From Burkholderiales bacterium (GTDB lineage: Bacteria > Pseudomonadota > Gammaproteobacteria > Burkholderiales > Burkholderiaceae_C), in assembly GCA_017307855.1 (NCBI GenBank), contig JAFKGD010000015.1, positions 33,496-97,495 on the forward strand: 64,000 bases of DNA, written 5' to 3'. The stretch's first letter is position 1, and each line of letters starts with the position of its first letter. The position numbers and the translations under genes are program-made. Shown piece after piece: positions 27,695 through 61,851 of this stretch. Under the pieces are notes generated by a model. The model was not told the DNA's origin and did no database searches. It saw only the letters and a list, made by a program, of their open reading frames with translations.

Positions 27695-27737
27695 GGCCGC
27701 ATTGTGTCTGCCCCGCACGCCGGGCAGGCAAGCAGCG

Positions 27738-29957: not shown

Positions 29958-30004
29958 GGTGCGCACGGGAGTGTACGCAGGCATCGTGCCAGCGCGCGCG
30001 GGCG

Positions 30005-32266: not shown

Positions 32267-32286
32267 AGGGATGGGATCGGCCGCGC

Positions 32287-32598: not shown

Positions 32599-32641
32599 GG
32601 TTGGGGTTCTCTCCATTGAAAATTCGGTGACGGGGCCGCGC

Positions 32642-38600: not shown

Positions 38601-38614
38601 GTTCCGTTCTTCAT
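32642..38614 (-). CDS. Bacterial alpha-2-macroglobulin family protein (YfhM/ECAM-like, thioester-containing)
   Basis: Start re-set to MKNGTRNTTTGWIARAIVGTALAAGWPAWA, with RBS AAGGAGAAG (1990 aa). The thioester motif C-L-E-Q (YPYTCLEQQTS) is encoded at 34121-34132. It has the classical pairing with pbpC. Confidence 0.9.
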   Translation of the reverse strand: MKNGTRNTTTGWIARAIVGTALAAGWPAWALQVTGVTPQGEVAQVRQVTVRFDSAAVAFGDPAAAAPATVSCSDAQASRGSGRWLDDRRWVWDFTADLPPGVRCTVATRSGFAAPQGGALASGQWRFQTGGPAVRQLRPGSWQPLDEEQFFVMQLTGPATTASVAANVWCEMEGLGERIPVRMIDGAQRSDLLKSLNLDKAAATDPLRIATFACNRRLTPSAKVQVVYGRGVATPSGVVNAVERRFDFTVREPFALEFSCERENAEAACLPIRPLRLSFNAPVERRLAAAIVLKGPQGSVKPKFDNEGEDDALVNGVRFEAPFAESARYTVELPSGFKDAAGRAARNAGNFPLPVATGVMPPLAKFAAAPFGIVERLAEPDGAMVLPVTLRKVEGTPAEPGKVSVLQLKDDADIIAWQRRLQRYDDFEVSRKQAARDVQGPLPAPLTKEEREWVQSRMLSLLAGKSGVRTLELPRGQGGDPRPFEVVGIPLSPGFHVVEIASPRLGAALLDAQHGAARTMYVRSSALVTNLGVHFKLGRENAMAWVTTLDAGKPVAGAQVRVSSCDGRELARGTTDARGLVELAGLSSQPPTCKEEGEYRDAYFVSARAPGRAPDGSAVQDIAFTWSDWHRGIEPWRFDLPTNSAPQPDVRMHTVFDRTLLRAGETVSMKHFIRTETRTGFALPRERPTQVEIRHTGSGQLYRQPLTWRTTGSGGLSAESEFAIPPAARLGVYRVTMQLGNDTQDSGEFRVEEFRLPVLQGRVAPAGKEALIAPTRVPAQVQVSYVAGGAATNLPVRVSALVRERRPDFRDFDSFSFAPPRNATPAAGTEGEEEEAAPQDERVVADKLPLTLDRNGTGQVTIEPLPAARAPRELVLEATYADPNGELQTLRSVSTVWPAGVVAGIRAESWVSSGRKLKFQALALDHAGKPREGVSLAVKAVARITTTSRKRMVGGFYSYDNKTELKDLGEVCSGKSDSRGLLLCETSLAQAGEVELVATAKDGAGRASEAASSVWVTRQGELWFGGQNNDRIDVLPEKKSYEPGETARFQVRMPFRFATALVAVEREGIVETHVMQLNGQDPTVSLKVGENWGPNTFVSVLALRGRLRDVPWYSFFTWGYKAPREWWTAFWVEGREYVAPTALVDLSKPAFRLGVAEIRVGTRAHKLDVAVKADRESYTVRGQAQVTISVKKPDGTPAGGAEVALAAVDQALLELMPNDSWNLLDAMLQRRSWGVETSTAQMEIIGRRHYGRKAVAPGGGGGRSPTRELLDTLLLWNPRVVLDAQGQAKVTVPLNDALTTFRIVAVADAGADLFGTGEARIRATQDLQIISGLPPLVREDDAFRAQFTLRNTTSRAMKVEVAPRATLLQLPARTVDIPAGEAREVTWDVKAPAQLAFTRAESLLWEIEARETSGSAGARDALKATQRIVPAVPLTVRQATLAQVDGSFSIDVASPAGALADNGVARGGLRLSLQPRLAEGLPGVRDWFARYPYTCLEQQTSRAIGLGDATLWRRVAGLMPGYLDSDGLPSYFPPREGEGARGSDTLAAYLLSATHEAAALDPAFALPDAVRSELERGLIAFVEGRVKRDFWSPRADLDVRKIAAIAALARTGAATPRLLQSVTLAPNQWPTHAVIDWHDILQRMPDAPRRAERLAEATQILRARLTYQGTRMSFSTERDDAWWWLMQGPDVNAARLLLSVMDDPAWKDDMGRLAAGFIARQQNGAWHTTTANLWGNLALRQFSAKFESQPVAGTTRAQLGSGTAAVDWARVERVKPADANTTQGAPHQGTAIGAPAAVGMLRNNAMTLPWPAPGAAQPLVVTHQGSGRPWLTLQALAAVPLTSPVAAGYRITRTVTPVEQATAGRYTRGDVLRITLEVDAQADMSWVVVSDPVPGGATVLGSGLGRDSQIATRGEQRDRGVAWPAFEERGFEAFRTYYEYLPKGKAKIEYTVRLNNVGDFALPPTRAEALYAPDVYGEIPNARIKVEPAP

Positions 38615-38758
38615 GACTTCTCCTTGCCCCCTGATCGTCGCCGGGCTTGATGACGCGTCGCCAGGCCCGTTGGAAACAATTTGTAGGACAAACGCAGCGG
38701 GACGATCAGGCGGCCGGCCCACATTCTCGCCACCGCGAATCACCGTACTGTCGCCAGC

Positions 38759-40051
38759 ATGAACCGCCGTTGGGAATTCGATGCGCTGCGCGGCCTGATG
38801 CTGGTGCTGATGACCTTCACGCACCTGCCCTCGCGCCTGAGTTCGCCGCTGGGCCAGCCGTTCGGCTTCGTCTCGGCGGCCGAAGGCTTCGTGCTGCTCT
38901 CGGCGGTGATGGCGGGGATGATCTACGGCCGCATGGCGCGGCGCGACGGCATCGAGGCGATGGAGCGCGCGTTCTGGAAGCGCGCCCTCAAGGTCTACCT
39001 GTGCCAGCTGGCGCTGATGCTGTTCCTGTTCACGGTGGTGGCCATGCTGGGCCTGGCGCGCGGCGAGCCGGCGGTGACCAACCTGATGTCGTTCTACCTG
39101 CAGCATCCGGTGCTGGCGCTGCCGGCGGCTGCGCTGCTGGTCTACCAGCCGGCGCTGATGGACATCCTGCCCATGTATGTGCTGTTCATGCTGGCCAGTC
39201 CGTGGGTCATGGCCTGGGGCCTGCGGCGTGGCTGGGGTCCGGTGATGGCGCTGAGCGTGGGCCTTTGGGTGGTGGCGCAGTTCGGTGTCGAGATGCGGCT
39301 GCACGGCCTGCTCGAACACCATTTGGCTTTCCCGGTGCCCTGGCGGGACACCGGCGCATTTTCATTGATGGCGTGGCAGTTCCTGTGGGTGATGGGGCTG
39401 TGGCTGGGCGCGGGCCGCCAGCCCCATTCGCCACCGCACCTGCGCTTTCCGTCCTGGGCGGTCACCCTGGCGGTGATGCTGGCGCTGGTCGGGCTGGCCT
39501 GGCGCCACACCATGGGGCAGGCGCCGTTCGGCGCCAACGTCGCGCTCAACATGGTGTTCGACAAATGGCAGCTGGCACCCATGCGCGTGCTCAACCTGTT
39601 CGCGCTGATCGTGGTGGTTCTGCGTTTCGGACCCTGGCTGGCCGCGCGCATGCCGCGCCTGCGGTGGCTGGAAACGCTGGGCATGGCATCGCTGCCGGTG
39701 TTCTGCGCCCACCTGGTCGTGGTGCTGCTGGTGCTCTCGATCTGGGGTGGCAGTCCGACGGCGCGGCCGGTGTGGGGCGACGTGCTGCTGGTGGCGGGCT
39801 GCTTCGGCATCCTGTATGCCGTGGCGCGCATCTCGGTGGCGCTGGACCGCCTGCCGCCGCGCGGCAAGGGCGGCCGGCCGGCGGCCCCGTTCAGCGCGCG
39901 GCCGTCGCCGTCACCGCATGCGCCGGTGCCTGTGCAGGCGCCGACGGCAGCGGCCGCGTCGATGCCGACGTCGTCAGCACGGCCGGCACCGCTGTCGCCG
40001 CCGTCACCGCCGCTGGGGCCGGTGCCCCCGGTGCCACCGGCACCCCTGTGA
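38759..40051 (+). CDS. OpgC-like / acyltransferase-3-like membrane protein with a Pro/Ala-rich tail
   Basis: 430 aa. MNRRWEFDALRGLMLVLMTFTHLP and about 10 TM segments. The last ~70 aa are low-complexity Pro/Ala/Ser. Confidence 0.65.
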   Translation: MNRRWEFDALRGLMLVLMTFTHLPSRLSSPLGQPFGFVSAAEGFVLLSAVMAGMIYGRMARRDGIEAMERAFWKRALKVYLCQLALMLFLFTVVAMLGLARGEPAVTNLMSFYLQHPVLALPAAALLVYQPALMDILPMYVLFMLASPWVMAWGLRRGWGPVMALSVGLWVVAQFGVEMRLHGLLEHHLAFPVPWRDTGAFSLMAWQFLWVMGLWLGAGRQPHSPPHLRFPSWAVTLAVMLALVGLAWRHTMGQAPFGANVALNMVFDKWQLAPMRVLNLFALIVVVLRFGPWLAARMPRLRWLETLGMASLPVFCAHLVVVLLVLSIWGGSPTARPVWGDVLLVAGCFGILYAVARISVALDRLPPRGKGGRPAAPFSARPSPSPHAPVPVQAPTAAAASMPTSSARPAPLSPPSPPLGPVPPVPPAPL

Positions 40052-47412: not shown

Positions 47413-48828
<1,416 letters not shown>

Positions 48829-48863
48829 TGGGCAACAATAATCGGGTTCAACCCCGATCGGGC

Positions 48864-49916
48864 ATGAGAGCAGAAGAATCGCAAATTTTATCGGCGTTCC
48901 ACGAGCCGGCGGCTTCGTCGGAGCCGGCGGCGCAGCTGCTGGTGTTCGACGCCTGCCAGCTGGGTGTCGTGCTGCGTGCGGTGCTTTTCGTCGAGGCGGT
49001 TGTGGCTGTGGCGTCCATGTATGGTGCGGCCGGCCCTTCGCACTGGTTGTTGCGCGCCTCGCTGATCACTGCCGTGGCGCTTCCGGCCACGCTGGCCTGG
49101 CTGATCGTCGCCTGCGCCGGCAAGCGCGCGCTCGCGCGTCTGCCGCGGTGGGCCCAGTACCTGGCAGGCGCGAGCCTGGGCGCGCTGGCCGGACTCTACG
49201 GTTGCGGCATGCTGGCGCTGGCGAGCTACGCCGAGGCCGTTCCCTGGCTGGCAGGCGCCAGCACCGGCGCGCTGATGGCTGCCCTGCTGGTCGGCGGCCT
49301 GGAACTGCGGGCGCGAGGCCGCACACCGGCCGACACCACCGCGCGCCTGGCCGAGTTGCAGTCGCGCATCCGGCCGCACTTTCTCTTCAATACCCTCAAC
49401 AGCGCCATCGCGCTGGTACGCGCCGAGCCGGCCAAGGCGGAAGCCCTGCTGGAAGATCTCAGTGATCTGTTCCGCGCCGCGCTGGTGGAGCAGGGAGACT
49501 CGGTGACATTGGACGAAGAAATCCGCATGGCCGAGCGTTATCTGGCGATCGAGCAGGTGCGGTTCGGTGACCGGTTGCGCATCGGCTGGCATCTCGATCC
49601 TGACGCCGACACCGCCCGGCTGCCGCCGCTTCTGCTCCAGCCGCTGGTGGAGAATGCCGTACGCCATGGCGTGGAGCCCAGCGACAGCGGCGCCGACATC
49701 GAAATCAGCACCGAACGGCGCCGCAACACGGTCGTCATCAAGGTTGCCAATACCGTTCCGGCCGGACCGGGCACGCCAGGACACGGCGTGGCGCTGAACA
49801 ATGTGCGCGACCGGCTGCATTTGCTGCACGACGTGCGCGTGCAGTTCAGCGCAGCCTTGGATGGTGGCGTGTTCCGCGTCCGCATCGAATTACCCGTTGG
49901 GGGAGAAGTCCGATGA
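48864..49916 (+). CDS. LytS/AlgZ(FimS)-type sensor histidine kinase
   Basis: ATG at 48864 chosen because the GTG at 48822 would overlap the argH start. Membrane N-terminus, then the His_kinase motif [17 protein letters not shown] and [14 protein letters not shown]. Sits beside argH, as algZ does in Pseudomonas. Confidence 0.85.
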
Positions 49917-50656
49917 CCCTGAGAGTCCTGATCGTCGATGACGAGCCGCTTGCCCGGGCACGGCTGCGCACCCTGCTGGGGGACTGCGCTGATCCGACCG
50001 CCCAGGTCGTGGCCGAGGCCGGCAATGCCACCCAGGCCATGGACCTGATCACGCGGGAGCGTTTCGATCTCGCGCTGATAGACATCCACATGCCGGGGGC
50101 CGATGGCCTCAAGCTGGCCCAGGCGATGCGTGGCGTGGACCGGCCGCCGATGGTGGTCTTCGTGACCGCCCACCCCGGCCATGCGGTGACGGCATTCGAA
50201 CTCGATGCGGTGGACTACCTCACCAAGCCGGTACGCATCGAGCGGTTGCGCCAGGCGCTGGTGAAGGCCGAGCGCTTCCTGCGCGAGCGCGAGGCGCCGG
50301 CCGATGAGCCCGTGCTCGTCATCCAGGACCGGGGGCGCACGGAGCGGGTGCCGTTCGCGGAGATCCTGTATTTCAAGGCCGAACTGAAGTACGTCACCGT
50401 GCGAACAGCCGCCCGCAGCTACATCCTGGACGGCTCGCTGGCCGAGCTCGAAGCCCGGCTGACCGGCCAGTTCCTTCGCATCCATCGAAACGCCCTGGTG
50501 GCGCGCCGCGCCGTGCGCTCACTGGAAAAGCACTACAGCACCGAGCCCGGCGAAGAAGGGGAAGGCTGGGCCATCCGCCTCACCGGCGTCCAGGAGGTGC
50601 TGGCCGTGTCGCGACGCCAACTGGCGGCTGTCCGCGAAGCAATCGCGTCAGGCTGA
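49913..50656 (+). CDS. LytTR-family response regulator (AlgR-like)
   Basis: 247 aa. Receiver (VLIVDDEPLAR...LALIDIHMPG...KP) plus a LytTR domain (ILYFKAELKYVTVRT...FLRIHRNALV). ATGA overlap with the kinase gene. Confidence 0.92.
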   Translation: MTLRVLIVDDEPLARARLRTLLGDCADPTAQVVAEAGNATQAMDLITRERFDLALIDIHMPGADGLKLAQAMRGVDRPPMVVFVTAHPGHAVTAFELDAVDYLTKPVRIERLRQALVKAERFLREREAPADEPVLVIQDRGRTERVPFAEILYFKAELKYVTVRTAARSYILDGSLAELEARLTGQFLRIHRNALVARRAVRSLEKHYSTEPGEEGEGWAIRLTGVQEVLAVSRRQLAAVREAIASG

Positions 50657-50672
50657 CAAGACGCGAGCTACA

Positions 50673-50724
50673 GGTTTCCGTTCCAGCGTCTTCGGACTTC
50701 GCTCCGGGGATGGTCGGTTTCGGC
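50673..50724 (+). promoter_or_regulatory. Three phased TTCG-core direct repeats (candidate LytTR/AlgR-type sites)
   Basis: GGTTTCCGT (50673), GACTTCGCT (50695) and GGTTTCGGC (50716), spaced 22 and 21 bp. Each matches GGYTTCGAT from the 52944 site at 7 of 9 positions. They lie 74-125 bp upstream of the RES-like gene start. Confidence 0.4.
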
Positions 50725-50797
50725 GCACTGAACGCGCGGCACGCGACATCCCTCCTAACCTGCGGCGCTTGCGATGCTGCACGGAGGATCGATGCGC

Positions 50798-51394
50798 ATG
50801 AGACTTTTCCGACTGGCGTTTCCGGACCAGTCGTTGACGCGCACGGCGCGGCGGATGAAGGACTTGCAAAGGTGCGGGGACATCAACAGCGAACACCTCA
50901 GACCTTGTGTCGCCTACGAGTCGGCTGAGCTCGCGGCCATGTGCTCAAGCGAACTTCTGTGGAGTGTCCGCCGCAAGACAGAACTCCTGCGGGAGACCGT
51001 GACACTGCCTGGCGGCACCGGGCTGCATGGTCTCGCACCGGCCGCGGTGTGCGAGTCGTTCGATGCGCAGTACACGCCATCGCTGCCGCTGGTCGAGCAT
51101 ATGGTGGCGCACGGGCTGTTGTCGCTCTGGGTTCCAAGCGCCCATGCGGGCCACCAGCATGCGGTGTTCATCAACCCTTGCCACGCGGCGTTTGCGGACA
51201 TCGTCATCGAGAAGCGGCATATCGTGCTGACCCGGCCGCCATGGAGCGGATACGTCGAGTCGTCGGATCGCATGATGCTCGCTGCGGGAATCCACACGGC
51301 CGAACCGGCTGCGCCGAGCGGGCTCGCCTGGCGCTGGATTTCAGAGGATATTTCTCGGCATACGGCAGGTTTACTCCATGCATCGGATGGTTGA
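50798..51394 (+). CDS. RES-domain-like protein (NAD-targeting toxin family relative), atypical context
   Basis: ATG at 50798 sits 9 nt after GGAGGA (50783-50788). MRLFRLAF..., RPCVAYESAELAAMCSSELL and LLSLWVPSAHAGHQHAVFINPCHAAFADIVIE resemble the RES family pattern (G-R-W/F-N...Y..S...E...VPS...NP.H). The G-R-x-N position reads G-D-I-N. GC3 pattern supports this frame. Confidence 0.55.
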   Translation: MRLFRLAFPDQSLTRTARRMKDLQRCGDINSEHLRPCVAYESAELAAMCSSELLWSVRRKTELLRETVTLPGGTGLHGLAPAAVCESFDAQYTPSLPLVEHMVAHGLLSLWVPSAHAGHQHAVFINPCHAAFADIVIEKRHIVLTRPPWSGYVESSDRMMLAAGIHTAEPAAPSGLAWRWISEDISRHTAGLLHASDG

Positions 51395-52173
51395 GGGCGG
51401 AATTCGTCGATCCAGTCGAATTTGAACCATTCGGTTACATCTGGGCAAAAATCGGCCTGCCCTCAGCTTTGAGCCCATCCGATATGCCATCTGTTACTGC
51501 ATTTCTCCGGCACTGGTTGCCGCGTCAGAGTTCCGGAAGTGAGCGGGCTGCCCGAGCCGCAGGCAGCGGGTCCGAGACCGCCGAGTCCGCTACGCTGGCT
51601 GATTCGCACCTGATCATGAATGTCTTCAATCAGCTGGCGGCGAGCATGCATGCCCGCCTGGGTGAAGAAGATCCACGGCTGTTTGCGCTGGCCGACTATC
51701 TACGTCTGGTGCTTCGCTGTGGCAACGTTGACAAGCTGTCTGTGCACGAAGAATTCCTGCTGCTTCAGAGTTACATCCAGCTGGTGGCCCGCAATCGCCC
51801 GATAGACCTCTCTTTCGAATTCAGTCCTGGTGCGGAGGAGGAGGGCGGCCATGGGCGCCTCGTCCAGCGGCATCTGGCATGCGATCTCGTGGGCGCCGTA
51901 TTGAAAGCACTGCCCGGCGGAGGAGCGAGTGCCACGCGCCTGCGTATCGGGTTCGAGAACGGCGGGCCTGGCTGCGCCTACGTCCTGCATGCTTCGCTGG
52001 TTTGTCCGGATGCCGCCGAATTCGAACGCCGGCTTCGCAACGAACTGGACGGCATGGCCGATCGCTTCGACCTGCCTGGCGGCGGGCCGAAACAATCCTA
52101 TGGCAGGTCGGGAACGCACGTCACCTGGTCTGCCACCGTCGTGGGCCAACCGGCTTACCAGGGGGCCGTATGA
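51391..52173 (+). CDS. Soluble LytS/His_kinase-type protein with a degenerate ATPase region
   Basis: SHLIMNVFNQLAASM...LADYLRLVL...LSVHEEFLLLQSYIQLVARNR aligns with the AlgZ-like paralog ([10 protein letters not shown]...LSDLFRAAL...[21 protein letters not shown]). No TM segments. The N-box Asn and DxGxG are not recognisable. Start is uncertain: TTG 51391 overlapping the upstream stop, or ATG 51484. Confidence 0.6.
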   Translation: MRAEFVDPVEFEPFGYIWAKIGLPSALSPSDMPSVTAFLRHWLPRQSSGSERAARAAGSGSETAESATLADSHLIMNVFNQLAASMHARLGEEDPRLFALADYLRLVLRCGNVDKLSVHEEFLLLQSYIQLVARNRPIDLSFEFSPGAEEEGGHGRLVQRHLACDLVGAVLKALPGGGASATRLRIGFENGGPGCAYVLHASLVCPDAAEFERRLRNELDGMADRFDLPGGGPKQSYGRSGTHVTWSATVVGQPAYQGAV

Positions 52174-52916
52174 GGAGCCTATCGGTCATCCTGGCTGACG
52201 ACGATCGTGAGCAGTTGCGCTATCTCCAAGACCTGATCCACGTCCTTCGCCCCCACTGGACGGTCATCGCAGCGCTCGACGACATCACGTCGTTGCCGGC
52301 GTTGATCCAGAGTGAGCAGCCGTCCCTGTGCATTCTTGACGTCGGCTTCGAAGATACGAATGGAATAGACACGGTTCGAAATATTCCGAGCGCTCCTCCC
52401 ATCATCTACGTCACGGGCGACCCCTCCGCTGCTGTGAGGGCATTCGATACGCCGGCTATCGACTTCATCGTCAAACCCATACGCCGTGACCGTTTCGAGC
52501 AAGCGCTGGAGAGGGCCGAAAAACAGGTCGGGCTGCTCGCGGCCGAGAGGAGCCAGGCCGAGCGTTCCGATACCAGCCGCGTCGTGACGCCCACCATGGT
52601 CCGGATGATGCGCGGCGAAGATCTCATGATCGTCTCGCTGGACGAAGTCCGCTACTTCCAGGCGGATCGCAAGTACACGCGCGTGGTCCTCCAGTCCCAG
52701 GAAGGCATGCTGCGAATGAGCCTGTACGCCATCGAACCGTACATCAATGCGGACCACTTCTGGCGCATTCACAGAGGCTGCATCATCAACGCCCGGCGCG
52801 TGTCGCTGGCCAAGCGGGATGATCTGGGTCGTCTGTTCATCCGAGTCCAGGACCGGCCCGAGAGCCTGCCGGTCGCCAGGCCGTACGAGTACCTGTTCAA
52901 GGATGGCTTCTCCTGA
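52170..52916 (+). CDS. LytTR-family response regulator
   Basis: Start MRSLSVILADDDREQL (ATGA overlap with the upstream stop). Receiver D (LCILDV), T (YVTGD) and K (IVKP). LytTR domain VRYFQADRKYTRVVL...FWRIHRGCIIN. Confidence 0.9.
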   Translation: MRSLSVILADDDREQLRYLQDLIHVLRPHWTVIAALDDITSLPALIQSEQPSLCILDVGFEDTNGIDTVRNIPSAPPIIYVTGDPSAAVRAFDTPAIDFIVKPIRRDRFEQALERAEKQVGLLAAERSQAERSDTSRVVTPTMVRMMRGEDLMIVSLDEVRYFQADRKYTRVVLQSQEGMLRMSLYAIEPYINADHFWRIHRGCIINARRVSLAKRDDLGRLFIRVQDRPESLPVARPYEYLFKDGFS

Positions 52917-52943
52917 ATGTGCACAGGGGCGAACTGTCACGAA

Positions 52944-52973
52944 GGTTTCGATCTTGATTCTGAGGGCTTCGAT
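52944..52973 (+). promoter_or_regulatory. 9-12-9 direct repeat GGTTTCGAT-N12-GGCTTCGAT (candidate LytTR binding site)
   Basis: 8 of 9 identical 9-mers at 52944-52952 and 52965-52973, separated by exactly 12 nt. This is the canonical LytTR-site geometry. Lies 89-118 bp upstream of the hybrid kinase start (53062). Confidence 0.55.
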
Positions 52974-53061
52974 ATCGCCTGAACACAACTGACGATAGCC
53001 CTGTGACGCAGGCCGCAGGGGCTTCTAGGATGGGCCGGCTTTCGGACCGCCGTTCTTCCAG

Positions 53062-54891
53062 ATGTCCATCCCCTTCTTCGGCCGCGCCGCTGGCAAACAG
53101 CGTGTTTCAGGACTGTCGTCCTTGCCCCACGTCGATGTGGCGAGCCAGATCTCCCGGGAACGCATGGAGGTTGCCTGGCGCCAGGCCACCCGCACGATCC
53201 CCGGTCTGGCCGCTGCCGGAATGGGCGCTCTCTGGATGTGGGCGGCGACGGACAGGCTTGCATTGGGAAGTCTCTGGATCCTTGCCTGTCTGTTGCAGAC
53301 GGGGCTGATGTGGCTGGCCGCGCGACGCTACTTGAGGCTGGACGAAGCCGAGCGTCGACGGCATTACAGGGCGTTCTGGTGGAGCAACACCATCGGTGGC
53401 CTTCTACACGGCGCGCTGTGCACCACCTTCGCGTGGAGTGTGATTCCTGGGCTGGATCCGCCCGCACGCGCTTCCGCATCGGTGGCTTTGCTGGTCTTGG
53501 GGGGATGGCTGGCCAGCACCGGCTCCCTGCTGCGCGTCGGCTTCCTGTTCTCCGCGCTGTTGCCAACCTCGTCCTTGTGCCTCATCTGGTGGCCCGGCGC
53601 CCCTGCCGATGCGGCGGGTGCCGTGGTCGTCCTCATGTTCGGACTGGCACTGGTGTGGATGCACAGGGAGCAGGAACTTCTCCTTCAACGCTCCGTTCTC
53701 GCGCAGATGCGCAACGCAATGCTGATGCGCGAGGCATTGCAGCGCAGCCAGCTCATCGAGTCGATCAACAAGAAGAAGACCGAGATCATTGCTGCCGCCA
53801 GTCATGACTTGCGGCAGCCTGTCCATGCGCTCGGACTGCTCGTCCAGCGGCTGCATCCGAATCTGGGGGAGGCCGACCAACTGGTGCTTTTCCATCAGGT
53901 GCGATCCCGGGTGGCCGTGATCTCGGAGATGCTGGCTGGCCTGCTCGACCTGTCGAAGTTCGACAGCGGAAGCTACAAGGTGCGCCTCGAGACGGTCCGC
54001 TTGACCGACGTCGTGGAGGAAGTCGTCGGGCTCTTCGAGGACCGGGCACACCGGAAGAACCTCCGGTTGCGGCACGAGGTCGAGGATGTGGATATCCAGA
54101 CGGATGCGGCGTTGCTCAAGCAGATCATCCACAACCTCATCAGTAACGCGATCAAATACACGGCAAAGGGCGAGGTGGCGATCGTCGGCGGCTACGGAGG
54201 GGCGGGTTCGTTTCTCCTTCAGGTGCGCGATACCGGGATCGGTATTCCGCGTGGCAACCTCGACGAGATCTTCATGGAGTACTTCCGGCTGCCGGTCCAT
54301 CGCAATGGAAGCGAGGACGGTCTCGGCATCGGCCTGGCATTGGTCAAGCGCGCGTGCTCGTTGCTGAGCTACCGCGTCCACGTCAAGTCGATCGTGGGTG
54401 GTGGCAGCCGCTTCACGCTTGAAATTCCGGCGATGAGGGTGGCGCCGCATCGTCGCCAGGTGGATCTCCTGCCGGCCGACACGGTGCCCGGGGATTCTGC
54501 AGGTAACCAGGAGCATTGCATCCTGCTGCTGGAGAACGATGAGGTCGCGCACGACGCCATGGTTCGCCTGGTCTCGGACTGGGGCTATCGCGTCATCGCC
54601 AACACGGACGGCGAGCGCATGCTGCAACGCCTGAGAACTGATCCTGCATTGCGGCCCGATCTCATCGTCTCGGACATGCATCTGGGCGGGCCCAAGGATG
54701 GCGTGCAGTACATCGAGGCCATCCGGGAGATCATGGGAGCTCCCAGGCTGCCTGGTCTGGTGGTGACCGGCGATCTGGGGCGTGAGCTTCAGGAGCGTGC
54801 GGCCAAGAAGGGCATCCGCATCCTGTACAAGCCACTCCAGCCGCGGATCCTGAAGGCCGCCATCAGAGGCGTCCTGCGCTCTCCCGGCTAG
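53062..54891 (+). CDS. Hybrid sensor histidine kinase (membrane N-terminus, HisKA, HATPase, C-terminal receiver)
   Basis: 609 aa with about 5-6 TM helices. H-box AASHDLRQPVHAL, N-box LISNAIKYT, G-boxes VRDTGIGIP and GLGIGLALV. Receiver ILLLENDEVAHD...LIVSDMHLGG...YKP. Confidence 0.88.
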   Translation: MSIPFFGRAAGKQRVSGLSSLPHVDVASQISRERMEVAWRQATRTIPGLAAAGMGALWMWAATDRLALGSLWILACLLQTGLMWLAARRYLRLDEAERRRHYRAFWWSNTIGGLLHGALCTTFAWSVIPGLDPPARASASVALLVLGGWLASTGSLLRVGFLFSALLPTSSLCLIWWPGAPADAAGAVVVLMFGLALVWMHREQELLLQRSVLAQMRNAMLMREALQRSQLIESINKKKTEIIAAASHDLRQPVHALGLLVQRLHPNLGEADQLVLFHQVRSRVAVISEMLAGLLDLSKFDSGSYKVRLETVRLTDVVEEVVGLFEDRAHRKNLRLRHEVEDVDIQTDAALLKQIIHNLISNAIKYTAKGEVAIVGGYGGAGSFLLQVRDTGIGIPRGNLDEIFMEYFRLPVHRNGSEDGLGIGLALVKRACSLLSYRVHVKSIVGGGSRFTLEIPAMRVAPHRRQVDLLPADTVPGDSAGNQEHCILLLENDEVAHDAMVRLVSDWGYRVIANTDGERMLQRLRTDPALRPDLIVSDMHLGGPKDGVQYIEAIREIMGAPRLPGLVVTGDLGRELQERAAKKGIRILYKPLQPRILKAAIRGVLRSPG

Positions 54892-54908
54892 GCGACCGAG
54901 GGCCCCGG

Positions 54909-55607
54909 TCAGCTGCGGATGCCCGTCGCCGGCATCTCTGCGCCAGCCGGTGTGCCCTGCGCGTTCAGCGACAGCGGCCAGGTGTCCACGAAGTCCTGAT
55001 GGGTCTGGAGCATCATCTCCGGCCAGGCGGAAAGCACTTCGATGTATCTCAGATAGGTGCTGCGGACGACTTGGGCAAATGCATCGGCCCATGAACGGAA
55101 CACGACGTCCATCTCAAGGGGCGAGAGCAACACGGCTTCCTGCAGGGCTCGCTCCAGGCACAACGAGTAGCGGAGGGGATCGAAAGCACTGCCTTTGACC
55201 TCGAAGTTGCAATCTTCGCGCCTGATCATGCGCGTAAGCGCCAGCGTTTCGGTGCGGCACCCGGCCTGTGCACGGCGGCCCAGATGCAGAACATGATCCG
55301 AGTAGTCGTCGTGCGGCGGTTCTGCCGTCGGGACACTGCGAAGGTCCTGGAGCCGCCAGGCCATGAAGCGCTCGCTGACCGCGCCTGCGTTCGCCAGCAG
55401 ACGAAGGGCGAGCGAGCGCTGCAGATGCGGGCGATAGACCAAGGCGGCCGCATCCGCGTAGACGAAAAGGAGACAACGCCTCAGGAACGCAGGCAACAGC
55501 AAATGGTTGTCGTAAACGGCAAACTCGATGAGCGTCGCGCGCATCGATAGTTCATAGCGGGGTTCGAAACCGTCCATCAGAGTGCCCTCACGAGTCAAGG
55601 TGTGCAT
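54909..55607 (-). CDS. Hypothetical protein (no recognisable domain)
   Basis: Start taken at MHTLTREG (55607), with an alternative MDGFEPRY at 55577. The G/C-rich third-position pattern supports coding. The upstream part of the 364-aa track ORF overlaps a promoter region and looks non-coding. Confidence 0.5.
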   Translation of the reverse strand: MHTLTREGTLMDGFEPRYELSMRATLIEFAVYDNHLLLPAFLRRCLLFVYADAAALVYRPHLQRSLALRLLANAGAVSERFMAWRLQDLRSVPTAEPPHDDYSDHVLHLGRRAQAGCRTETLALTRMIRREDCNFEVKGSAFDPLRYSLCLERALQEAVLLSPLEMDVVFRSWADAFAQVVRSTYLRYIEVLSAWPEMMLQTHQDFVDTWPLSLNAQGTPAGAEMPATGIRS

Positions 55608-55985
55608 GATGGTTCGGAAATTTGTAGCGTGAAGGCTGGGGGAGCGAGCGCTTCGGGGGCGGGAGCAGGCCTGCGCTGCGCAGGATCGGACCATGGCATC
55701 GGCGGCGTCAGGCGGCGTGCTTGGTCCCATGCCACATGCCGGGCGGGATCGGGGATTCCACTGTTCCGCGTTACGTCCCACGTTCCACCGGGTGTTACGT
55801 AGCAAGTACTCGTCCATCGAGGGCTTGAAGCTGTAAAGCGGAGGGCGCAACGCACAGTTCGCCGGTTTTTTGACGAATTGGGAGCGTTTTGCGGGATTTT
55901 GGGACCCAGTGGTTTGGTTGCACGTTCTGGCCCGGGAATTGCCCTTCTGAACGCATATCCACCCGCAAATCCAAGGAGCGAAGAC

Positions 55986-57140
55986 ATGAAGGCAGTGACT
56001 CACCTGTTCAAAGGTTCGTGTGTCGTGATCGCGCTGGCACTGACCGGCTGCGCTTCGGACGGCAGTTTCAGCTCAACCGCCGGTGCAGGAGGCGGCGGAG
56101 GCACGACTGGCGGTGGGGACAGCGGCTCCGGCAGTCCCAGGACCTTCACCAGTGTCGAGCGCGGCACCAACGCCGTGGCCACGATCGGCCAGGAGGCCGG
56201 CGGCCTGCTCGGCACGGCGGGCAATCTGGTCGAGCAGGTGGGCGGCAGCGTGGGTCAGGCCAGCCTTCCTTTGGTGGGCGCAGGCACTGCGCCCGCGCTG
56301 GGCGGCGTGCTCGGCAACACCGGCCAGGCCGTGGGGGCTGTCGGCGCTGGCGTGTCGTCGGGTCTCGGCCAGCTTGGCAACGTCGCAGATCCGATCGGCA
56401 ACACGGCCGGCGGCCTGCCGCCCGCCGTCCAGTCGCTGGGCCAGGCGGTGAGCAGCGCAGGCGAGGCCGTGCGCTCGGTCGATGGCGGTCAATTGGGCGT
56501 ACTGGCGCCCGTGACCAACACGGCTGGCGAGGTGGTCGATCGCACGGGCGGCCTCGTGACGCAAGTCGGCGGTCAGCTGGGTACGGCGCTCGATAGCGAG
56601 GGCGTGCGGCAGGTGACGGGCGGCCTGAGTGAAGCGGTGACGCCCGTGGTCGGCGGCGTGATGACGGGAACCCAGAGTGCCGGCGACATGCTGGGTGTGG
56701 GCCAGCCCGTCAACAACCTGCTGACACAGGTGGGCGGCGGCGTGCAGTCGCTTGGCGAAGCCATCTCCGGAGACGGCAACCGTCCGGTGGTGAACGAGGT
56801 GGGTCAGGTCGTCTCCGCCGCGGGCACGACGGTCGTCGCATTGGGCGGTGTGGTGCATGCCGACGGTAGCCAGGGCGCTGGTCTGGGCAGCCTCGGTGGC
56901 GTCCTCGGCTCGCTGACGGGCGGGCTCGCGGGCGGCTCGGGCAGTGGCTCCGGCGGCGGCAGCGTGGGTGTGGGCGGCGGTCTCGTGGCTGGCGTCGCCA
57001 GCACGGCAGGCAGCCTGGGCGTCGGACTGGGCGGTGGCGTAGGCGCAGGTGCCACGGGCTCCTCGGGTGGCACGTCGTCCACCGGCGGCCTGCTGGCCCC
57101 CGTGGGCAACCTCCTCGGCGGCCTGAGCGGACGGCGTTGA
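55986..57140 (+). CDS. Glycine-rich repetitive lipoprotein (no TPS domain)
   Basis: Start re-set to MKAVTHLFKGSCVVIALALTGCASDG, with RBS AAGGAG at 55972-55977. Lipobox L-T-G-C. The mature part is Gly/Val/Leu/Gln-rich with recurring xQVGGxxG units and poly-Gly/Ser tracts. 384 aa. Confidence 0.75.
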   Translation: MKAVTHLFKGSCVVIALALTGCASDGSFSSTAGAGGGGGTTGGGDSGSGSPRTFTSVERGTNAVATIGQEAGGLLGTAGNLVEQVGGSVGQASLPLVGAGTAPALGGVLGNTGQAVGAVGAGVSSGLGQLGNVADPIGNTAGGLPPAVQSLGQAVSSAGEAVRSVDGGQLGVLAPVTNTAGEVVDRTGGLVTQVGGQLGTALDSEGVRQVTGGLSEAVTPVVGGVMTGTQSAGDMLGVGQPVNNLLTQVGGGVQSLGEAISGDGNRPVVNEVGQVVSAAGTTVVALGGVVHADGSQGAGLGSLGGVLGSLTGGLAGGSGSGSGGGSVGVGGGLVAGVASTAGSLGVGLGGGVGAGATGSSGGTSSTGGLLAPVGNLLGGLSGRR

Positions 57141-57169
57141 GCCGGGCTGACGTTCATCGCCAGCACCGG

Positions 57170-58867
57170 ATGGCTTCCAGTACCAGGACCGCGCTCGCCT
57201 GGCTCTGCGCCCTGACTCTCGCGAGTCAGGGCGCGGTGTCGTGGGCGCAATCGCCCAGCGCGGGCAATCCGCTCGACCAGTTGCCGCAACCGCTGGACCG
57301 CACTCCGGCCGGCGGCGGCGTACAGGTCGAAGTCACGCCGGCGCCCGCGCCGGCCGCCACGGCCGACGCTCTGGCAAGGCAGTTCGTGCCTCGCCGCTTC
57401 GACATCGAGGGCGTGAAATCGGTGCCGTTCTCCGACATCGCGGCGCTGTTTTCTCCCCACGTAGGCAAACCGGTGACCGTCGCGCGTCTGGTCGAGCTCG
57501 CGCGCGAGGCGACGGCCCTCTACCAGCGCGACGGCTGGGGCCTGTCGTTCGTCTACGTGCCGTCCCAGGCCTTCGCCGACGGCGTGGTGCGCGTGGTGGC
57601 GGTGGAAGGCCACGTGGCCGATGTCCGGGTGGAAGGCGATGCCGGACGCTCGGCCGCGCGTCTGCAGGACATCGCGGCCCGCATCCGGACAGAGAAGCCG
57701 TTGCGGCGCGAAACCTTCGAGCGGTACTCGGCGCTTCTGGGCCGTCTTCCGGGGCTGACGGTGGAGGCCAGTGTGCCGCTGCCGGCGTCCACCGATGGCG
57801 CCTCCGTCATGACGCTCAAAGTGACGCGCAAGATGTTCGATGCCAACGTGGCTTCCGACCTGCGGCGGCCGCATCCGCGTGCCGTGGCGACGGCGACGCT
57901 CAACGACACCCTCACCCCCGGCGGACAGCTCTCGGTGTCGGCGCTGGTGGTCGGGCGTGAAGACGAGAGGCTGCAGGCCGTGCAGTACCGGCAGGCGATC
58001 GGTTCCGAGGGCCTTACCCTCAAGGCCGCGTTCTCTGCCTACCGGGGGGATCCCGACGGCACGCTGGGCCTTGCGTCCCCGTTCGACCGCCGCACCACCA
58101 ACCTGCGGCGCGAGCTCTCGGCGTTGTATCCGCTGCGCCTGGGACCCACGCACAGCCTCCTGCTGTCGGGTGGCCTGTACAGCGTCGACAACGTGGAGAC
58201 CACGGCCGATCCGGCCACCGGCAATTTCGTCGCCGACGATACACGCGTGCGAGCTGCCTTCGCGCAGCTGGCCTGGGAAGACAACCAGCCCCGGCGCGCG
58301 CGCTCGGCCAGTCTCCTGGTCGCGCGCGGACTCGACGGCAACGGTGCGGGCTCGTTCGTTCGCAGCAATGTGCCGGGCGCGGCCGGGCCGGGCACGGCAC
58401 GCGTGGACTTCACGCGCGCGTTGATCGAGCTGAAGGAATCGCGCCGCATCGGCGACGCCTGGGGCATCGTCGCCTCGGCCGCAGCGCAGGTCACACCGGA
58501 TACCCTGCCCACGACCGAGCGCCTGTCGTTCGGAGGGGCACGCTTCGGCCGTGCCTATGCGCCGGGCGAAACCTCGGGCGACCAGGGGTGGGGCCTGGGC
58601 TTCGAGGTCAACCGCCTCTTCACGCGGCCAGCAGGCGGCTGGGTGCGGCAAGTGCAACCCTACGTGTTGCTGGAGGCTGCACGCGCGTATGGCGAACTGG
58701 GAACGCCCGTGCCGTCGAAGTTGGGCTCGGCGTCACTGGGTCTGCGGCTCGCCGATCTCAAGCACTACATGCTGGATTTCTCGGTGTCGCGCGCCGTGGG
58801 CGAGCGGCCGCTGGAGAATCCCGACCGCGAACCGCGCCTCGTCGTGCAGTTCAGCTTCCGCCTGTGA
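57170..58867 (+). CDS. ShlB/FhaC/HecB-family (TpsB, type Vb) outer-membrane transporter
   Basis: Signal peptide MASSTRTALAWLCALTLASQGAVSWAQ. POTRA-like FDIEGVKSVPFSDIAALFSPHVGKPVTVARLVELAREATALYQRDGWGLSFVYVPSQAFADGVVRVVAVEG. C-terminal beta-barrel ending in F-S-F-R-L. An alternative TTG start at 57137 overlaps the lipoprotein stop. Confidence 0.85.
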   Translation: MASSTRTALAWLCALTLASQGAVSWAQSPSAGNPLDQLPQPLDRTPAGGGVQVEVTPAPAPAATADALARQFVPRRFDIEGVKSVPFSDIAALFSPHVGKPVTVARLVELAREATALYQRDGWGLSFVYVPSQAFADGVVRVVAVEGHVADVRVEGDAGRSAARLQDIAARIRTEKPLRRETFERYSALLGRLPGLTVEASVPLPASTDGASVMTLKVTRKMFDANVASDLRRPHPRAVATATLNDTLTPGGQLSVSALVVGREDERLQAVQYRQAIGSEGLTLKAAFSAYRGDPDGTLGLASPFDRRTTNLRRELSALYPLRLGPTHSLLLSGGLYSVDNVETTADPATGNFVADDTRVRAAFAQLAWEDNQPRRARSASLLVARGLDGNGAGSFVRSNVPGAAGPGTARVDFTRALIELKESRRIGDAWGIVASAAAQVTPDTLPTTERLSFGGARFGRAYAPGETSGDQGWGLGFEVNRLFTRPAGGWVRQVQPYVLLEAARAYGELGTPVPSKLGSASLGLRLADLKHYMLDFSVSRAVGERPLENPDREPRLVVQFSFRL

Positions 58868-59774
58868 CAGCGCGGCCACGGGGCTTGAGCAGGCCCGTGG
58901 CCAGCCCCGTACCCAGGAGGATCACGGCGCCGCATGCCACCATCCACGGAGTGATCGTCTCACCCAGGAAGATCGCGCCGAAGACCACCGCGAACACTGG
59001 CACGACGAAGGTGACGGCCAGCGCGCGCGTCGGCCCGGCCTGCTCGAGCAGGCGGAAGAACAGAAGGTAGGCCACGCCGGTGGACAGCGTGCCTGCTGCC
59101 AGCACGGCCATCCACGCCTGCATGCTGGGCCACTGGCTCGGCATGAACCACAGGGCCGGCAGCAGCAGCCCCACGGTGGCACCGATCTGGCTGCCTGCGG
59201 CCGTGAGCACGGGTGGCAAACCCTTGGCGTGCCGGCGTGTGTAGCTCGCCGCGATGCCGTAGCACAGCGTGGCCAGCAGGCACGCCAGCACGGCCCAGCC
59301 CGTGGCCAGGCCCGAGGCGTCGGGGCGGAAGCTGGCCTTGTTCCAGGCCAGCATCACCACGCCCGCGAAGCCCACGGCCAGTCCGAGCGTGCGCCAGCGG
59401 TCGGGGCGATCGCCCAGCCACACCCACGCCACCAGCGCGCCGAACAGCGGCGTGGTCGCGTTGAGGATGGCCGACAGGCCCGACGTGATCGACAGCAGCG
59501 CGAAGCTGTAGCACGCGAACGGAATGGCTGAATTCACCATGCCCACGACGAGCAGCGGGCGCCAGTGCTGCCGCATTCCGCTGCCCAGGCCGCGCAGCAG
59601 CAACAGCGGCAGCAGCATCAGCGCGGCCACGGCCGTGCGCAACGCCGCCGTGGGCAGCGCGCCGAATTCCTGCGTGGCCACGCGCATGAACAGAAACGAA
59701 CAACCCCACGCGGCCGAAAGCAGCAGGAAATCGAGCACCCAACGGTGGCCCGGCGCCGAGCGCGGTGCAGTCAC
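58851..59774 (-). CDS. EamA/DMT-family transporter
   Basis: Ten-TM pattern with two EamA repeats (LLLSAAWGCSFLFMRVA...). The GTG at 59774 (GTGA overlap with the ogt stop) is chosen because upstream track sequence is ogt shadow. Start is uncertain. Confidence 0.75.
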   Translation of the reverse strand: MTAPRSAPGHRWVLDFLLLSAAWGCSFLFMRVATQEFGALPTAALRTAVAALMLLPLLLLRGLGSGMRQHWRPLLVVGMVNSAIPFACYSFALLSITSGLSAILNATTPLFGALVAWVWLGDRPDRWRTLGLAVGFAGVVMLAWNKASFRPDASGLATGWAVLACLLATLCYGIAASYTRRHAKGLPPVLTAAGSQIGATVGLLLPALWFMPSQWPSMQAWMAVLAAGTLSTGVAYLLFFRLLEQAGPTRALAVTFVVPVFAVVFGAIFLGETITPWMVACGAVILLGTGLATGLLKPRGRAVTGGS

Positions 59775-60358
59775 GCGCGCTGCCCCGCCGTCGCCAGGCC
59801 AATGGCGCGCTCGCCGAAGTCCAGCCCTGGTGAATCCAGTGGCGATGGCACCCGCGACGCCGGCCACGCGCCTTCGAGCGTGAGCAGCGCTTGCTTGCGG
59901 TGCAGCCCGCCGGCATAGCCGGTGAGGCTGCCGCCGTGCCCCATCACGCGGTGGCAGGGCACGATGATCGATACCGGGTTGCGGCCCACCGCCGCGCCCA
60001 CGGCGCGCACGGCCGAGGCGCGGCCGATCTGCCGGCCCAGCGCGCCGTAGCTCGTGGTCGTGCCCGGCGCGATGCCCAGAAGTGCCTGCCACACCGCCTG
60101 CTGGAACGCCGTGCCGCCCGAGAGATCCAGCGGCAGGTCGAACATCAGGCGGCGGCCCGCAAAGTACTCCTCGAGCTGGCGCCCGGCGGCGTCGAGCACG
60201 GCATCGGCGGTGTCAGCGGATGCCCAGGCCGAACCGTCGGGCTGATGGCGCTGGCCGTCGAACCACACGCCGGCCAGGCCTGTGGGGCTGGCCGCCAGGA
60301 TCATCGGGCCGAGCGGGCTGTCATGGCGGCGTCGCCGCAAGGTATCGGGGAACTTCAT
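59771..60358 (-). CDS. ogt: Methylated-DNA--protein-cysteine methyltransferase
   Basis: Start re-set to MKFPDTLRRRR (ATGA overlap with the upstream gene). Active-site IIVPCHRV motif. Confidence 0.9.
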   Translation of the reverse strand: MKFPDTLRRRRHDSPLGPMILAASPTGLAGVWFDGQRHQPDGSAWASADTADAVLDAAGRQLEEYFAGRRLMFDLPLDLSGGTAFQQAVWQALLGIAPGTTTSYGALGRQIGRASAVRAVGAAVGRNPVSIIVPCHRVMGHGGSLTGYAGGLHRKQALLTLEGAWPASRVPSPLDSPGLDFGERAIGLATAGQRA

Positions 60359-61851
60359 GATGTCGTTGTCCTTGTCGTCTCGGGTGGCCGGTCCCAGGCG
60401 CGCAGCACGGCGTAGCTGCGCCATGGCTTCCAGGCCTGCGAGGCGGCCTCGGCCGTGCGCGCCGTGGGCGTGTCCAGCGCCTTCTGCAAGGCGATGTCTC
60501 CGGCCGGAAAGGCATCGGGCCAGCGCAGCGCACGCATGGCGATGTACTGCGCCGTCCAGTCGCCGATGCCCGGCAGCTCGCACAGGCGCCGCACGGTGTC
60601 GGCATACGGCACGCCCGGATGCAGCGGCAGCGTGCCATCGGCGGTGGCCCGCGCGATGGCTCGAAGGGCGGCCTGCCGCTGGCGCACGATGCCGAGCTGG
60701 CCCAATGCATCGGGGTCGGCGGCCGCCAGCACTTCGGGCGCGGGGAACAGGTGGGTCAACTCGGGCAAGGGTGTGGCGACGGGCTCGCCGAAGCGCTCGG
60801 CCAGCCGCCGTGCCAGCGTGCGTGCCGCCGCCACCGTGATCTGCTGGCCGAGGACGGCGCGCATGGCAAGCTCGTAGCCGTCCACCGTGCCGGGAACACG
60901 CAGGCCCTCGCTGCCCGGGAAGTGCGGCAGCAGCGTGGCATTGATGGCCTTCGGGTCCGCATCAAGGTCGAGCAGCGAGCGCACGCGCTGGATGACCTGC
61001 GGCAGCGCCGTACGCAGGCCGTCGGAGACGCGCAGCACCACCTGAGACCGTCCGGCGTCGAACTCGCACGCCAGCCATCCCGTGAGTGTGTGACCACCCG
61101 AGCGCAGCCGCAGCGTACGTGCCAGCCGCGGCGTGGCGGGCGATGCATCGACCCACTCGATACCCGGCAGGTGCCGCCGCTCCAGGAAGCCGAGCATGGC
61201 CGTCACGTCGTAGGGCGGCCGATAGCCCAGCCTGACTACCGAGCCTTCGATGCCGGCAGCCCTGCGTGCCGGCTCCTGGCGCCGCAGCTGCGTGGGATTG
61301 AGGCCGTAATGTTCGACGAATGCGGCGTTGAAGCGCCGCAGGCTGGCAAAGCCGCTGGCCAGCGCCACCTGGGCGATGGGCAGGTGGGTGTCGGCCAGCA
61401 ACTGCTTGGCGGTGAGCAGCCGCCGCGTCTGCAGGTACTGCAGGGGCGACACGCCGAACTGCGCCTCGAAGATGCGGCGCAGGTGGCGATCGCTCACGCC
61501 CAGACGCCCGGCCAGCTGGGCCGGCGAGGGCGGGGCGTCGCTCCAGGCCTCGGGATCGTCGAGCCAGCGCGCGGCCTGGTGGGCAAGGATGTACGACGCG
61601 TCCTGGATCGACCACACGATGGAGTGCGGCGCCAGCTCGGGACGGCAGCGCAGGCAGGGCCTGAAGCCCGCGGCCTCGGCCTGCGCCGCGTGGCCGAAAA
61701 AGCGGCAGTTCTCGCGGCGCGGTGTCCGCACGCGGCAGACGGGGCGGCAGTAGATGCCGGTGGAGGTGACCCCGGTGAAGAAGCAGCCGTCGAAACGCGC
61801 ATCGCGCGCCTGCAGCGCGAGATAGAAGGCGTCGTCGGCAGCGAGGGTCAT
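60355..61851 (-). CDS. Ada-N/AraC regulatory domain fused to an AlkA-type DNA-3-methyladenine glycosylase II
   Basis: Start re-set to MTLAADDAFYLALQARDARFDGCFFTGVTSTGIYCRPVCR. Cys-rich Ada Zn domain, AraC HTH (RHLRRIFEAQFGVSPLQYLQ) and HhH-GPD region (LPGIGDWTAQYIAMRAL). Confidence 0.85.
   Translation of the reverse strand: MTLAADDAFYLALQARDARFDGCFFTGVTSTGIYCRPVCRVRTPRRENCRFFGHAAQAEAAGFRPCLRCRPELAPHSIVWSIQDASYILAHQAARWLDDPEAWSDAPPSPAQLAGRLGVSDRHLRRIFEAQFGVSPLQYLQTRRLLTAKQLLADTHLPIAQVALASGFASLRRFNAAFVEHYGLNPTQLRRQEPARRAAGIEGSVVRLGYRPPYDVTAMLGFLERRHLPGIEWVDASPATPRLARTLRLRSGGHTLTGWLACEFDAGRSQVVLRVSDGLRTALPQVIQRVRSLLDLDADPKAINATLLPHFPGSEGLRVPGTVDGYELAMRAVLGQQITVAAARTLARRLAERFGEPVATPLPELTHLFPAPEVLAAADPDALGQLGIVRQRQAALRAIARATADGTLPLHPGVPYADTVRRLCELPGIGDWTAQYIAMRALRWPDAFPAGDIALQKALDTPTARTAEAASQAWKPWRSYAVLRAWDRPPETTRTTTS

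Follow-up and report, generated by a model that had tools for sequence, protein, structure and literature searches.

In a 64-kb stretch of DNA from a Burkholderiales bacterium (contig JAFKGD010000015.1, positions 33,496 to 97,495; henceforth referred to as 'the window'), seven genes lie between algR, which encodes a response regulator of the LytTR type, and eamA. An initial annotation of this DNA described the seven genes as a single sensory-plus-output unit inserted after algZ-algR. Here we report that they are two separate units: unit A (50.79–55.58 kb), a five-gene signalling cassette, and unit B (55.99–58.87 kb), a pair of genes encoding a lipoprotein and a transporter. The cassette is a conserved five-gene unit that is fixed after algR in a small clade of Comamonadaceae, and it is old and inherited vertically. 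The explanation that best accounts for the observations jointly, to which we give an even chance, is that the two units are independent, that the cassette is a clade-restricted, vertically inherited unit working as a phosphorelay, and that unit B merely adjoins it.

Open reading frame (ORF) calls and Pfam searches revealed the seven genes in the order initially described. The cassette is anchored by algZ (48822–49916, plus strand), which encodes a LytS-type kinase (Pfam His_kinase, E = 1.1e-24), and by algR (49913–50656, plus strand; Response_reg and LytTR); both genes are its context and lie outside it. The cassette operon opens with the gene orf206/200 (50792–51394, plus strand; 200 amino acids (aa); henceforth orf206), which encodes an orphan protein and is followed by the gene for a protein we refer to as LytS' (51391 with a TTG start or 51484 with an ATG start to 52173, plus strand; 260 or 229 aa), by LytTR2 (52170–52916, plus strand; 248 aa), by the membrane hybrid kinase gene HK609 (53062–54891, plus strand; 609 aa) and by orf232/222 (54909–55577, minus strand; 222 aa; henceforth orf232), which encodes another orphan and is convergent with HK609. 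The stop codon of orf206 overlaps the candidate TTG start of LytS' by 4 nt, and the stop codon of LytS' overlaps the start of LytTR2, also by 4 nt. The labels given to the second LytTR regulator (Response_reg, 1.9e-14; LytTR, 1.5e-16) and to the hybrid kinase (HisKA, HATPase_c and Response_reg) are backed by Pfam, whereas that of a soluble LytS-like protein corresponds to a weak match to PF06580 (E = 0.002–0.004) that falls under the Pfam cut-off. Signalling domains are present in only three of the seven products, and not in four as had been counted.

The protein families of the cassette are tiny, with 5–10 protein clusters each among billions of proteins: homologues of orf206 form 5 clusters in 5.8 billion proteins, LytS' has 5 homologues, and orf232 has 9 in 5.8 billion proteins and, by profile search, 10 clusters in 1.84 billion representatives. 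We compared the loci of relatives (denoted by L-numbers) using the genes of the window as the reference for identities. Gene order is identical to that of the window in L081 and L100–L103, which represent the same species or nearly so, and L085 (AlgR 96% identical) contains all seven genes together with eamA-ogt-ada. In L088 (AlgR 80%), the order algZ-algR-orf200-LytS'-LytTR-HK-orf232 is followed at once by eamA and the lipoprotein/transporter pair is missing, and L089 (AlgR 83%) contains algR-orf203-LytS'-LytTR-HK. In L086, LytTR-HK-orf232 is followed by a prophage-like block, and L087 contains a solitary orf232 in an unrelated context; orf232 adjoins the hybrid kinase gene in the window, L081, L085, L088 and L086. 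A metagenome scan with the LytTR2 alignment yielded one more cassette fragment (L091), the remaining matches being generic LytTR regulators of ~30% identity. Wherever upstream DNA is visible (the window, L081/L100–L103, L085, L088 and L089) the cassette lies directly after algR, with AlgR 80–100% identical, and the cassette proteins and AlgR diverge in parallel across the lineages. Every contig on which AlgR is at least 80% identical and the DNA after algR is visible carries the cassette; where that DNA is visible, no clade member without it was seen.

Two occurrences at the edges of this distribution deserve mention. P0028, a homologue of orf206 with 62% identity that sits on a contig of 1.2 kb, bears the label of a Verrucomicrobiaceae metagenome-assembled genome; all other occurrences are Burkholderiales-like, and the label is probably a binning error. 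The prophage-like block of L086 (positions 1–9850), in a lineage with a 58%-identical orf232, occupies the place where the lipoprotein gene, the transporter gene and eamA would sit, and contains numerous small ORFs as well as GTA_holin_3TM, a replication protein of the Phage_GPA type and a P2_N/P2_C protein. Its border beside orf232 may be an integration hotspot.

At the family level, the description of the segment as accessory proved true. We fetched 80 related Comamonadaceae loci by AlgR, and the results that follow hold among the matches listed, beyond which closer relatives may exist. The argH-algZ-algR genes of the window are closest to those of Comamonadaceae (Ramlibacter, Rhodoferax and Curvibacter), at up to 72% identity for AlgR and up to 88% for ArgH. 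The argH-algZ-algR arrangement is kept in all 80 loci, and not a single one of the seven genes, nor eamA, ogt or ada, is present in any of them within 10 kb downstream of algR. Instead, (AI-2E transporter)-ppc-hemC-hemD follows algR in 37 of the 62 loci with long flanks, an arrangement resembling that in Pseudomonas. The proposed insertion between algR and eamA was not borne out: we found no relative in which algR and eamA are neighbours, and therefore the downstream neighbourhood differs altogether and does not reflect a simple insertion. A single gain of the cassette is probable, at the root of the clade in which AlgR shares at least 80% identity with that of the window (the 80 relatives without the cassette have AlgR of at most 72%), together with this change in the downstream neighbourhood. 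As the initial annotation had stated, no sign of mobility accompanies the segment: scans detected no tRNA in it, no Rfam match, no convincing flanking direct repeats and no mobility domain (integrase or transposase) in any ORF by Pfam or NCBIfam, and no plasmid relatives of the cassette were found. A scan for sigma-70 promoters and terminators was uninformative. The segment is a lineage-specific addition and not a mobile island.

Base composition separates the two units as well. The GC content of the window is ~70% overall, and it falls to 61–65% only at 51–56 kb. Compared with 27 reference genes of the window, in which the GC content at third codon positions (GC3) is 0.882 ± 0.028, the GC3 values of orf206 (0.741), LytS' (0.674), LytTR2 (0.787), HK609 (0.802) and orf232 (0.758) are 2.9–7.5 standard deviations (SD) lower, whereas those of the lipoprotein gene (0.813) and the transporter gene (0.848) are borderline and normal, respectively, and that of eamA is 0.893. 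Because of these values, the earlier estimate by eye that all seven genes are richer in A/T at third positions holds for the first five genes and fails for the last two. Similarly, the tetranucleotide L1 distance reaches 0.32–0.38 in 4-kb windows over 50–56 kb, compared to 0.18 ± 0.05, which makes these the strongest outliers of the window; the outliers of GC and tetranucleotide content are limited to ~50–56 kb, and the deviating composition that would be expected of a genomic island is found at 50.7–56 kb only and not at 56–58.9 kb. The GC3 of the cassette lies under that of the flanks in L085 and L088 as well. Since it is maintained across the window and L088 despite near-saturated synonymous sites, the low GC3 of the cassette is a maintained property and not the fading trace of a recent transfer; it could stem from low expression, or from weakness of codon selection or of biased gene conversion. 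A second, milder tetranucleotide deviation was seen at 26000–35000 (L1 up to 0.24, GC 0.73–0.74), where it overlies large minus-strand genes, including an ORF of 2239 aa at 32645–39361.

We considered whether all seven genes could nevertheless make up a single sensory-plus-output island that was acquired horizontally and inserted between algR and eamA, the pair of unit B being its output. The seven genes are contiguous and in the same order in L081 and L085, the segment is missing from the 80 relatives and 50–56 kb is compositionally atypical, all of which would suit such an island; however, the cassette of L088 abuts eamA without the pair, the prophage-like block stands at the pair's place in L086, the GC3 of the pair is near that of the host, and the pair is found by itself in Ralstonia (see below). 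Furthermore, transcription of orf232 points away from the pair, an empty algR-eamA site was not found, mobility genes, tRNA and flanking repeats were not detected, and the low GC3 persists in lineages with near-saturated synonymous sites. A single island is thus decidedly unlikely, and the view of the segment as one sensory-plus-output unit gives way to that of two units.

The cassette genes are functional and under purifying selection. Between the window and L085, the ratio of nonsynonymous to synonymous substitution rates (dN/dS) in the cassette genes is 0.04–0.20 (0.20 for orf206, 0.04 for LytTR2 and 0.12 for orf232) at a synonymous divergence (dS) of 0.72–1.25, compared to a dS of 0.23–0.46 in the flanks (argH, algZ, algR, eamA and ogt). 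Between the window and L088, where synonymous sites are near saturation, dN/dS is 0.12–0.31 and dS is 1.2–1.8 in the cassette genes, and the flanking dS is 1.0 (algR) and 0.67 (eamA). The cassette (50792–55577, window versus L085) hence exceeds the flanks in dS by a factor of two to three, which could reflect weaker synonymous constraint or recombination in which a more distant relative supplied a replacement cassette. The opposite view, of the cassette as DNA that is in decay and without function and whose low GC3 results from absent selection, is highly improbable: it could draw on the low GC3 and raised dS, on the partial and sub-threshold RES-like match of orf206 and on a natural 2.86-kb deletion allele, and it conflicts with the intact state of all five ORFs in five or more lineages, with the dN/dS values in both comparisons and with the invariant catalytic residues of HK609 and LytTR2. 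A pseudogene cluster was likewise rejected, dN/dS being far under 1.

The deletion allele itself is shared by L084 and L104, assemblies of the runs SRR29352995 and SRR29352993. In both, an in-frame deletion of 2.86 kb (window positions 51050–53909), located at a short microhomology, joins residues 1–86 of orf206 to HK609 from approximately residue 283 and takes out LytS', LytTR2 and the membrane and H-box part of HK609. It amounts to a naturally occurring knock-out of the cassette.

The protein on which the proposed function of the cassette turns is LytS'. Its sub-threshold match to PF06580, a family that is also precomputed on four homologues, is accompanied by an hhalign alignment with AlgZ (E = 2e-4, probability 46%) that pairs His42 of LytS' with His186 of AlgZ. 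In an alignment of five sequences, His42 and Asn46 of the H-box (SHLIMNVFNQ) are invariant. So is Asp134, which by eye lies at the position of the N-box Asn of AlgZ (LytS' segment RHLACDLVGAV), and the alignment contains no Gly-rich segment corresponding to the G1 box, G2 box and lid. HATPase_c gave no match to LytS' at any threshold, and a sequence profile search of the PDB returned only noise, with neither a kinase nor ChpT. No transmembrane or hydrophobic segment and no N-terminal membrane sensor (5TM-5TMR_LYT or similar) were detected. An AlphaFold2 model (predicted local distance difference test score, pLDDT, 70) shows a dimerization and histidine phosphotransfer (DHp) hairpin and an α/β domain, in which the strand at residues 166–173 is connected to the helix at 177–195 by three residues, where the lid would be. 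Foldseek ranked the GanS kinase domain first, followed by RetS, ChpT (4fpp), DivL, HK853 and DesK, of which RetS and DivL do not autophosphorylate. Of the features of a LytS-type kinase, LytS' thus has, weakly, the PF06580-type DHp with its His, and has neither the N-box, G1 and G2 boxes nor the membrane sensor; of those of ChpT/Spo0B-type proteins, it has, in a model of medium confidence, the DHp His and a lid-less domain like the catalytic and ATP-binding domain, and has no sequence homology. As judged from its sequence and predicted structure, LytS' appears to be a kinase-dead LytS-like protein from which the ATP-binding Asn, the G-boxes and the ATP lid have disappeared, and it probably acts as a ChpT/Spo0B-like histidine phosphotransferase.

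Two other roles for LytS' have to be weighed. It could be an active, very divergent soluble LytS-type kinase paired with LytTR2, with HK609 being unrelated and using a histidine phosphotransfer (HPt) protein encoded elsewhere. The 4-nt overlap of the two genes, which are always neighbours, the usual partnership of PF06580 kinases with LytTR regulators, the conserved H-box and the kinase-like fold are all compatible with an active kinase; yet an invariant Asp replaces the N-box Asn, neither G1 and G2 boxes nor a lid are present, HATPase_c is not matched at any threshold, a sensor domain and a membrane segment are both missing, and HK609 accompanies LytS'-LytTR2 wherever the contig extends that far. 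We therefore regard an active kinase as unlikely. Alternatively, LytS' could be a pseudokinase modulator like RetS or DivL, forming a heterodimer with AlgZ, binding HK609 or acting as a phosphatase of LytTR2 or AlgR. A functional tie of this kind to AlgZR would explain the constant place of the cassette, which adjoins algZR wherever upstream DNA is visible, and the DHp of LytS' is homologous to that of AlgZ, with RetS and DivL among the best fold matches. However, vertical inheritance explains the adjacency equally well, LytTR2 is only ~30% identical to AlgR, and the invariant His42 favours phosphoryl chemistry over pure binding, and a modulator is accordingly quite improbable in our estimate.

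The remaining two signalling proteins provide plausible partners for LytS' as a phosphotransferase. HK609 consists of an N-terminal multi-pass membrane region (approximately residues 45–205 by hydropathy) followed by HisKA, HATPase_c and a C-terminal receiver, and its H-box, N-box, G1, G2 and the Asp and Lys of the receiver are conserved in the family alignment. Pfam and NCBIfam detected no HPt domain in HK609, and an exact-sequence look-up found it not to be on record. LytTR2 is the best-conserved protein of the cassette (70–94% identity across the lineages, ~30% to AlgR) and has an intact receiver, in which Asp10–Asp12, Asp57 and Lys102 are invariant. A recent duplication of algZR as the origin of LytTR2 was rejected, its identity to AlgR being only ~30%. 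The spacer between LytTR2 and HK609 contains a direct repeat, TTCGAT-N15-TTCGAT (52947–52973, plus strand), with a spacing typical of LytTR operators. The repeat is the sole match in the window, with 0 expected by chance for a pattern that was picked post hoc, and L085, L088 and L090 preserve it in part; it might, tentatively, be a candidate operator of the LytTR type.

The most economical reading of these proteins would be a His-Asp-His-Asp relay from HK609 through its receiver and His42 of LytS' to Asp57 of LytTR2. HK609 would autophosphorylate and load its own receiver, at the C-terminus, with the phosphoryl group, which His42 of LytS' would accept from there, and LytS' would then transfer it to Asp57 of LytTR2. 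LytTR2 could subsequently bind DNA, possibly including the TTCGAT direct repeat upstream of HK609. To our knowledge, a HisKA-type hybrid kinase and a LytTR regulator are not normally seen as a pair. In hybrid kinases, the C-terminal receiver serves as an intermediary between partners of the DHp type and needs a His carrier (PMC9981736). Our literature search revealed no precedent for a phosphotransferase of the PF06580 type. We consider it possible, if somewhat less than evenly so, that LytS' and its few relatives represent an unrecognised, independently evolved class of kinase-derived phosphotransferases from the LytS/PF06580 lineage, linking a HisKA hybrid kinase to a LytTR regulator, with orf206 and orf232 as perhaps new input or output components.

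Several points weigh against this account of the cassette. Confidence in the LytS' model, which derives from five sequences, is medium (pLDDT 70), its TM-scores to solved kinases are low (0.3–0.45), the PF06580 match is sub-threshold and the hhalign probability is only 46%. The apparent loss of the ATP site is read from sequence and model in a family, that of LytS, whose kinases are atypical anyway, and HK609 could be served by an HPt protein that is encoded at another place in the genome. As to the history of the cassette, no clade genome without it was found and its gain is therefore inferred from distant relatives alone; closer relatives may lie beyond the matches listed.

Comparison with known signalling systems places the cassette between several of them. 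ChpT, of the Caulobacter CckA-ChpT-CtrA pathway, and Spo0B, of Bacillus sporulation, are kinase-derived histidine phosphotransferases. LytS' resembles both in its predicted DHp hairpin with the phospho-accepting His and its Bergerat-like α/β domain without an ATP lid, and also in its proposed partners, upstream a hybrid kinase (or receiver) and downstream a response regulator that binds DNA. It differs from them in that no sequence homology is detectable, the resemblance being at the level of the fold only, in that its DHp is of the LytS/PF06580 lineage, and in that the regulator at the end is of the LytTR type and not of the OmpR or Spo0A type. The hybrid kinases of the NahK/ErcS type require a separate phosphotransfer protein as His carrier, and HK609 shares with the NahK/ErcS'-HptB systems a HisKA-HATPase_c-REC core without HPt; however, its match to NF041832 (261.8 bits, 9.8e-78) is under the family cut-off of 400, it has no NosP or PAS sensor but a multi-pass membrane region as input, and no HPt-fold protein is encoded near it. 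With AlgZ(FimS)/AlgR and LytS/LytR the cassette has in common a PF06580-type H-box beside a REC-LytTR regulator, and it adjoins the genuine algZR; in contrast to AlgZ and LytS, LytS' has no 5TM (five-transmembrane) sensor, membrane segment, N-box Asn or G-boxes, and the divergence of LytTR2 from AlgR noted above separates it from AlgZR. In ChpT, the place of the ATP lid is taken by helix turns (PMC3433190), to which the three-residue link between strand and helix in the LytS' model is parallel.

For the two orphan proteins, scans with Pfam, NCBIfam and PADLOC gave nothing usable, orf232 having no match at all. orf206 is preceded by a GGAGGA Shine-Dalgarno sequence ahead of its ATG at 50792 and has an alternative start at 50774. 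Its initial label, RES-like, was not upheld, as the match to RES (PF08808) is sub-threshold (15.7 bits against a cut-off of 23.2, E = 0.015), covers profile positions 99–154 only and occurs in one of five family members, and a PDB sequence profile search gave no match. The score against NF049844 was 14.9 bits (cut-off 110), and the AlphaFold model (pLDDT 34) has no usable fold. A RES-Xre toxin-antitoxin pair was rejected given the sub-threshold RES match and the lack of an Xre/DUF2384 neighbour, the adjacent genes being algR upstream and LytS' downstream; a defence system or toxin-antitoxin module in general was rejected with no PADLOC match and no antitoxin gene.

Unit B comprises the genes for a glycine-rich lipoprotein (55986–57140, plus strand; 384 aa) and a TpsB-like outer-membrane protein (57170–58867, plus strand; 565 aa). 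The lipoprotein label was confirmed by a match to Collagen_mid (PF15984; 2.8e-45, 155 bits against a cut-off of 31.1), the only Pfam match of this protein, and by the lipobox LTGC, such that both the family domain and a lipoprotein signal are present; its Gly content is 28%. The TpsB label is likewise backed by Pfam, clearly for POTRA_2 (2.4e-15) and weakly for the ShlB barrel (19.1 bits, under the cut-off of 22.7). No TpsA with an N-terminal two-partner secretion (TPS) domain was found beside the TpsB gene, whose neighbour is the lipoprotein gene with Collagen_mid only. A TpsB homologue with 39% identity is encoded on the megaplasmid of Ralstonia solanacearum Po82, with a glycine-rich lipoprotein gene directly upstream. 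Because the pair stands alone in Ralstonia, we conclude that it is an independent, widespread module, common in Burkholderiales, that merely lies beside the cassette here and, being missing in L088, varies separately from it. The pairing of lipoprotein and TpsB seems to be general and uncharacterised. The Po82 megaplasmid locus (L099, 713–5611) contains two divergent glycine-rich Collagen_mid-like lipoprotein genes, and this stretch is unannotated in the gene table of the plasmid collection.

The lipoprotein shares with the collagen-like proteins of the Burkholderia cepacia complex (Bcc-CLP) the strong PF15984 match, the lipobox and a glycine-rich, low-complexity sequence, and differs from them in having no GXY collagen repeats; in Burkholderia, members of the Collagen_mid family are putative adhesins (PMC10224339). 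Unit B and the Ralstonia locus have the same order of lipoprotein then TpsB, with an adjoining transporter of the ShlB/FhaC type. Unit B differs from two-partner secretion in that TpsB is not partnered by a classical, TPS-domain-bearing TpsA. The next gene after the seven is eamA (58851–59774, minus strand), and eamA-ogt-ada are all on the minus strand. One arm of a perfect inverted repeat of 25 nt, CGCCCACGGCGCGCACGGCCGAGGC, falls within ogt (59995–60019) and the other within the 3' end of ada (60446–60470); weaker copies of the repeat are found at 58780–58802 and 59623–59660.

Overall, the results indicate that an unusual composition can be a stable, long-lived trait of an accessory cassette that is inherited vertically, and therefore that atypical composition is no proof of recent transfer. 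Should the relay not operate as proposed, the cassette would be a regulatory addition of an ordinary, lineage-specific kind in a Comamonadaceae bacterium from the environment. If the relay is true, LytS' would represent a further independent conversion of a kinase to a phosphotransferase after Spo0B and ChpT, and the first such conversion in the LytS family, and would show a route by which a LytTR regulator can come under a HisKA-type hybrid kinase.

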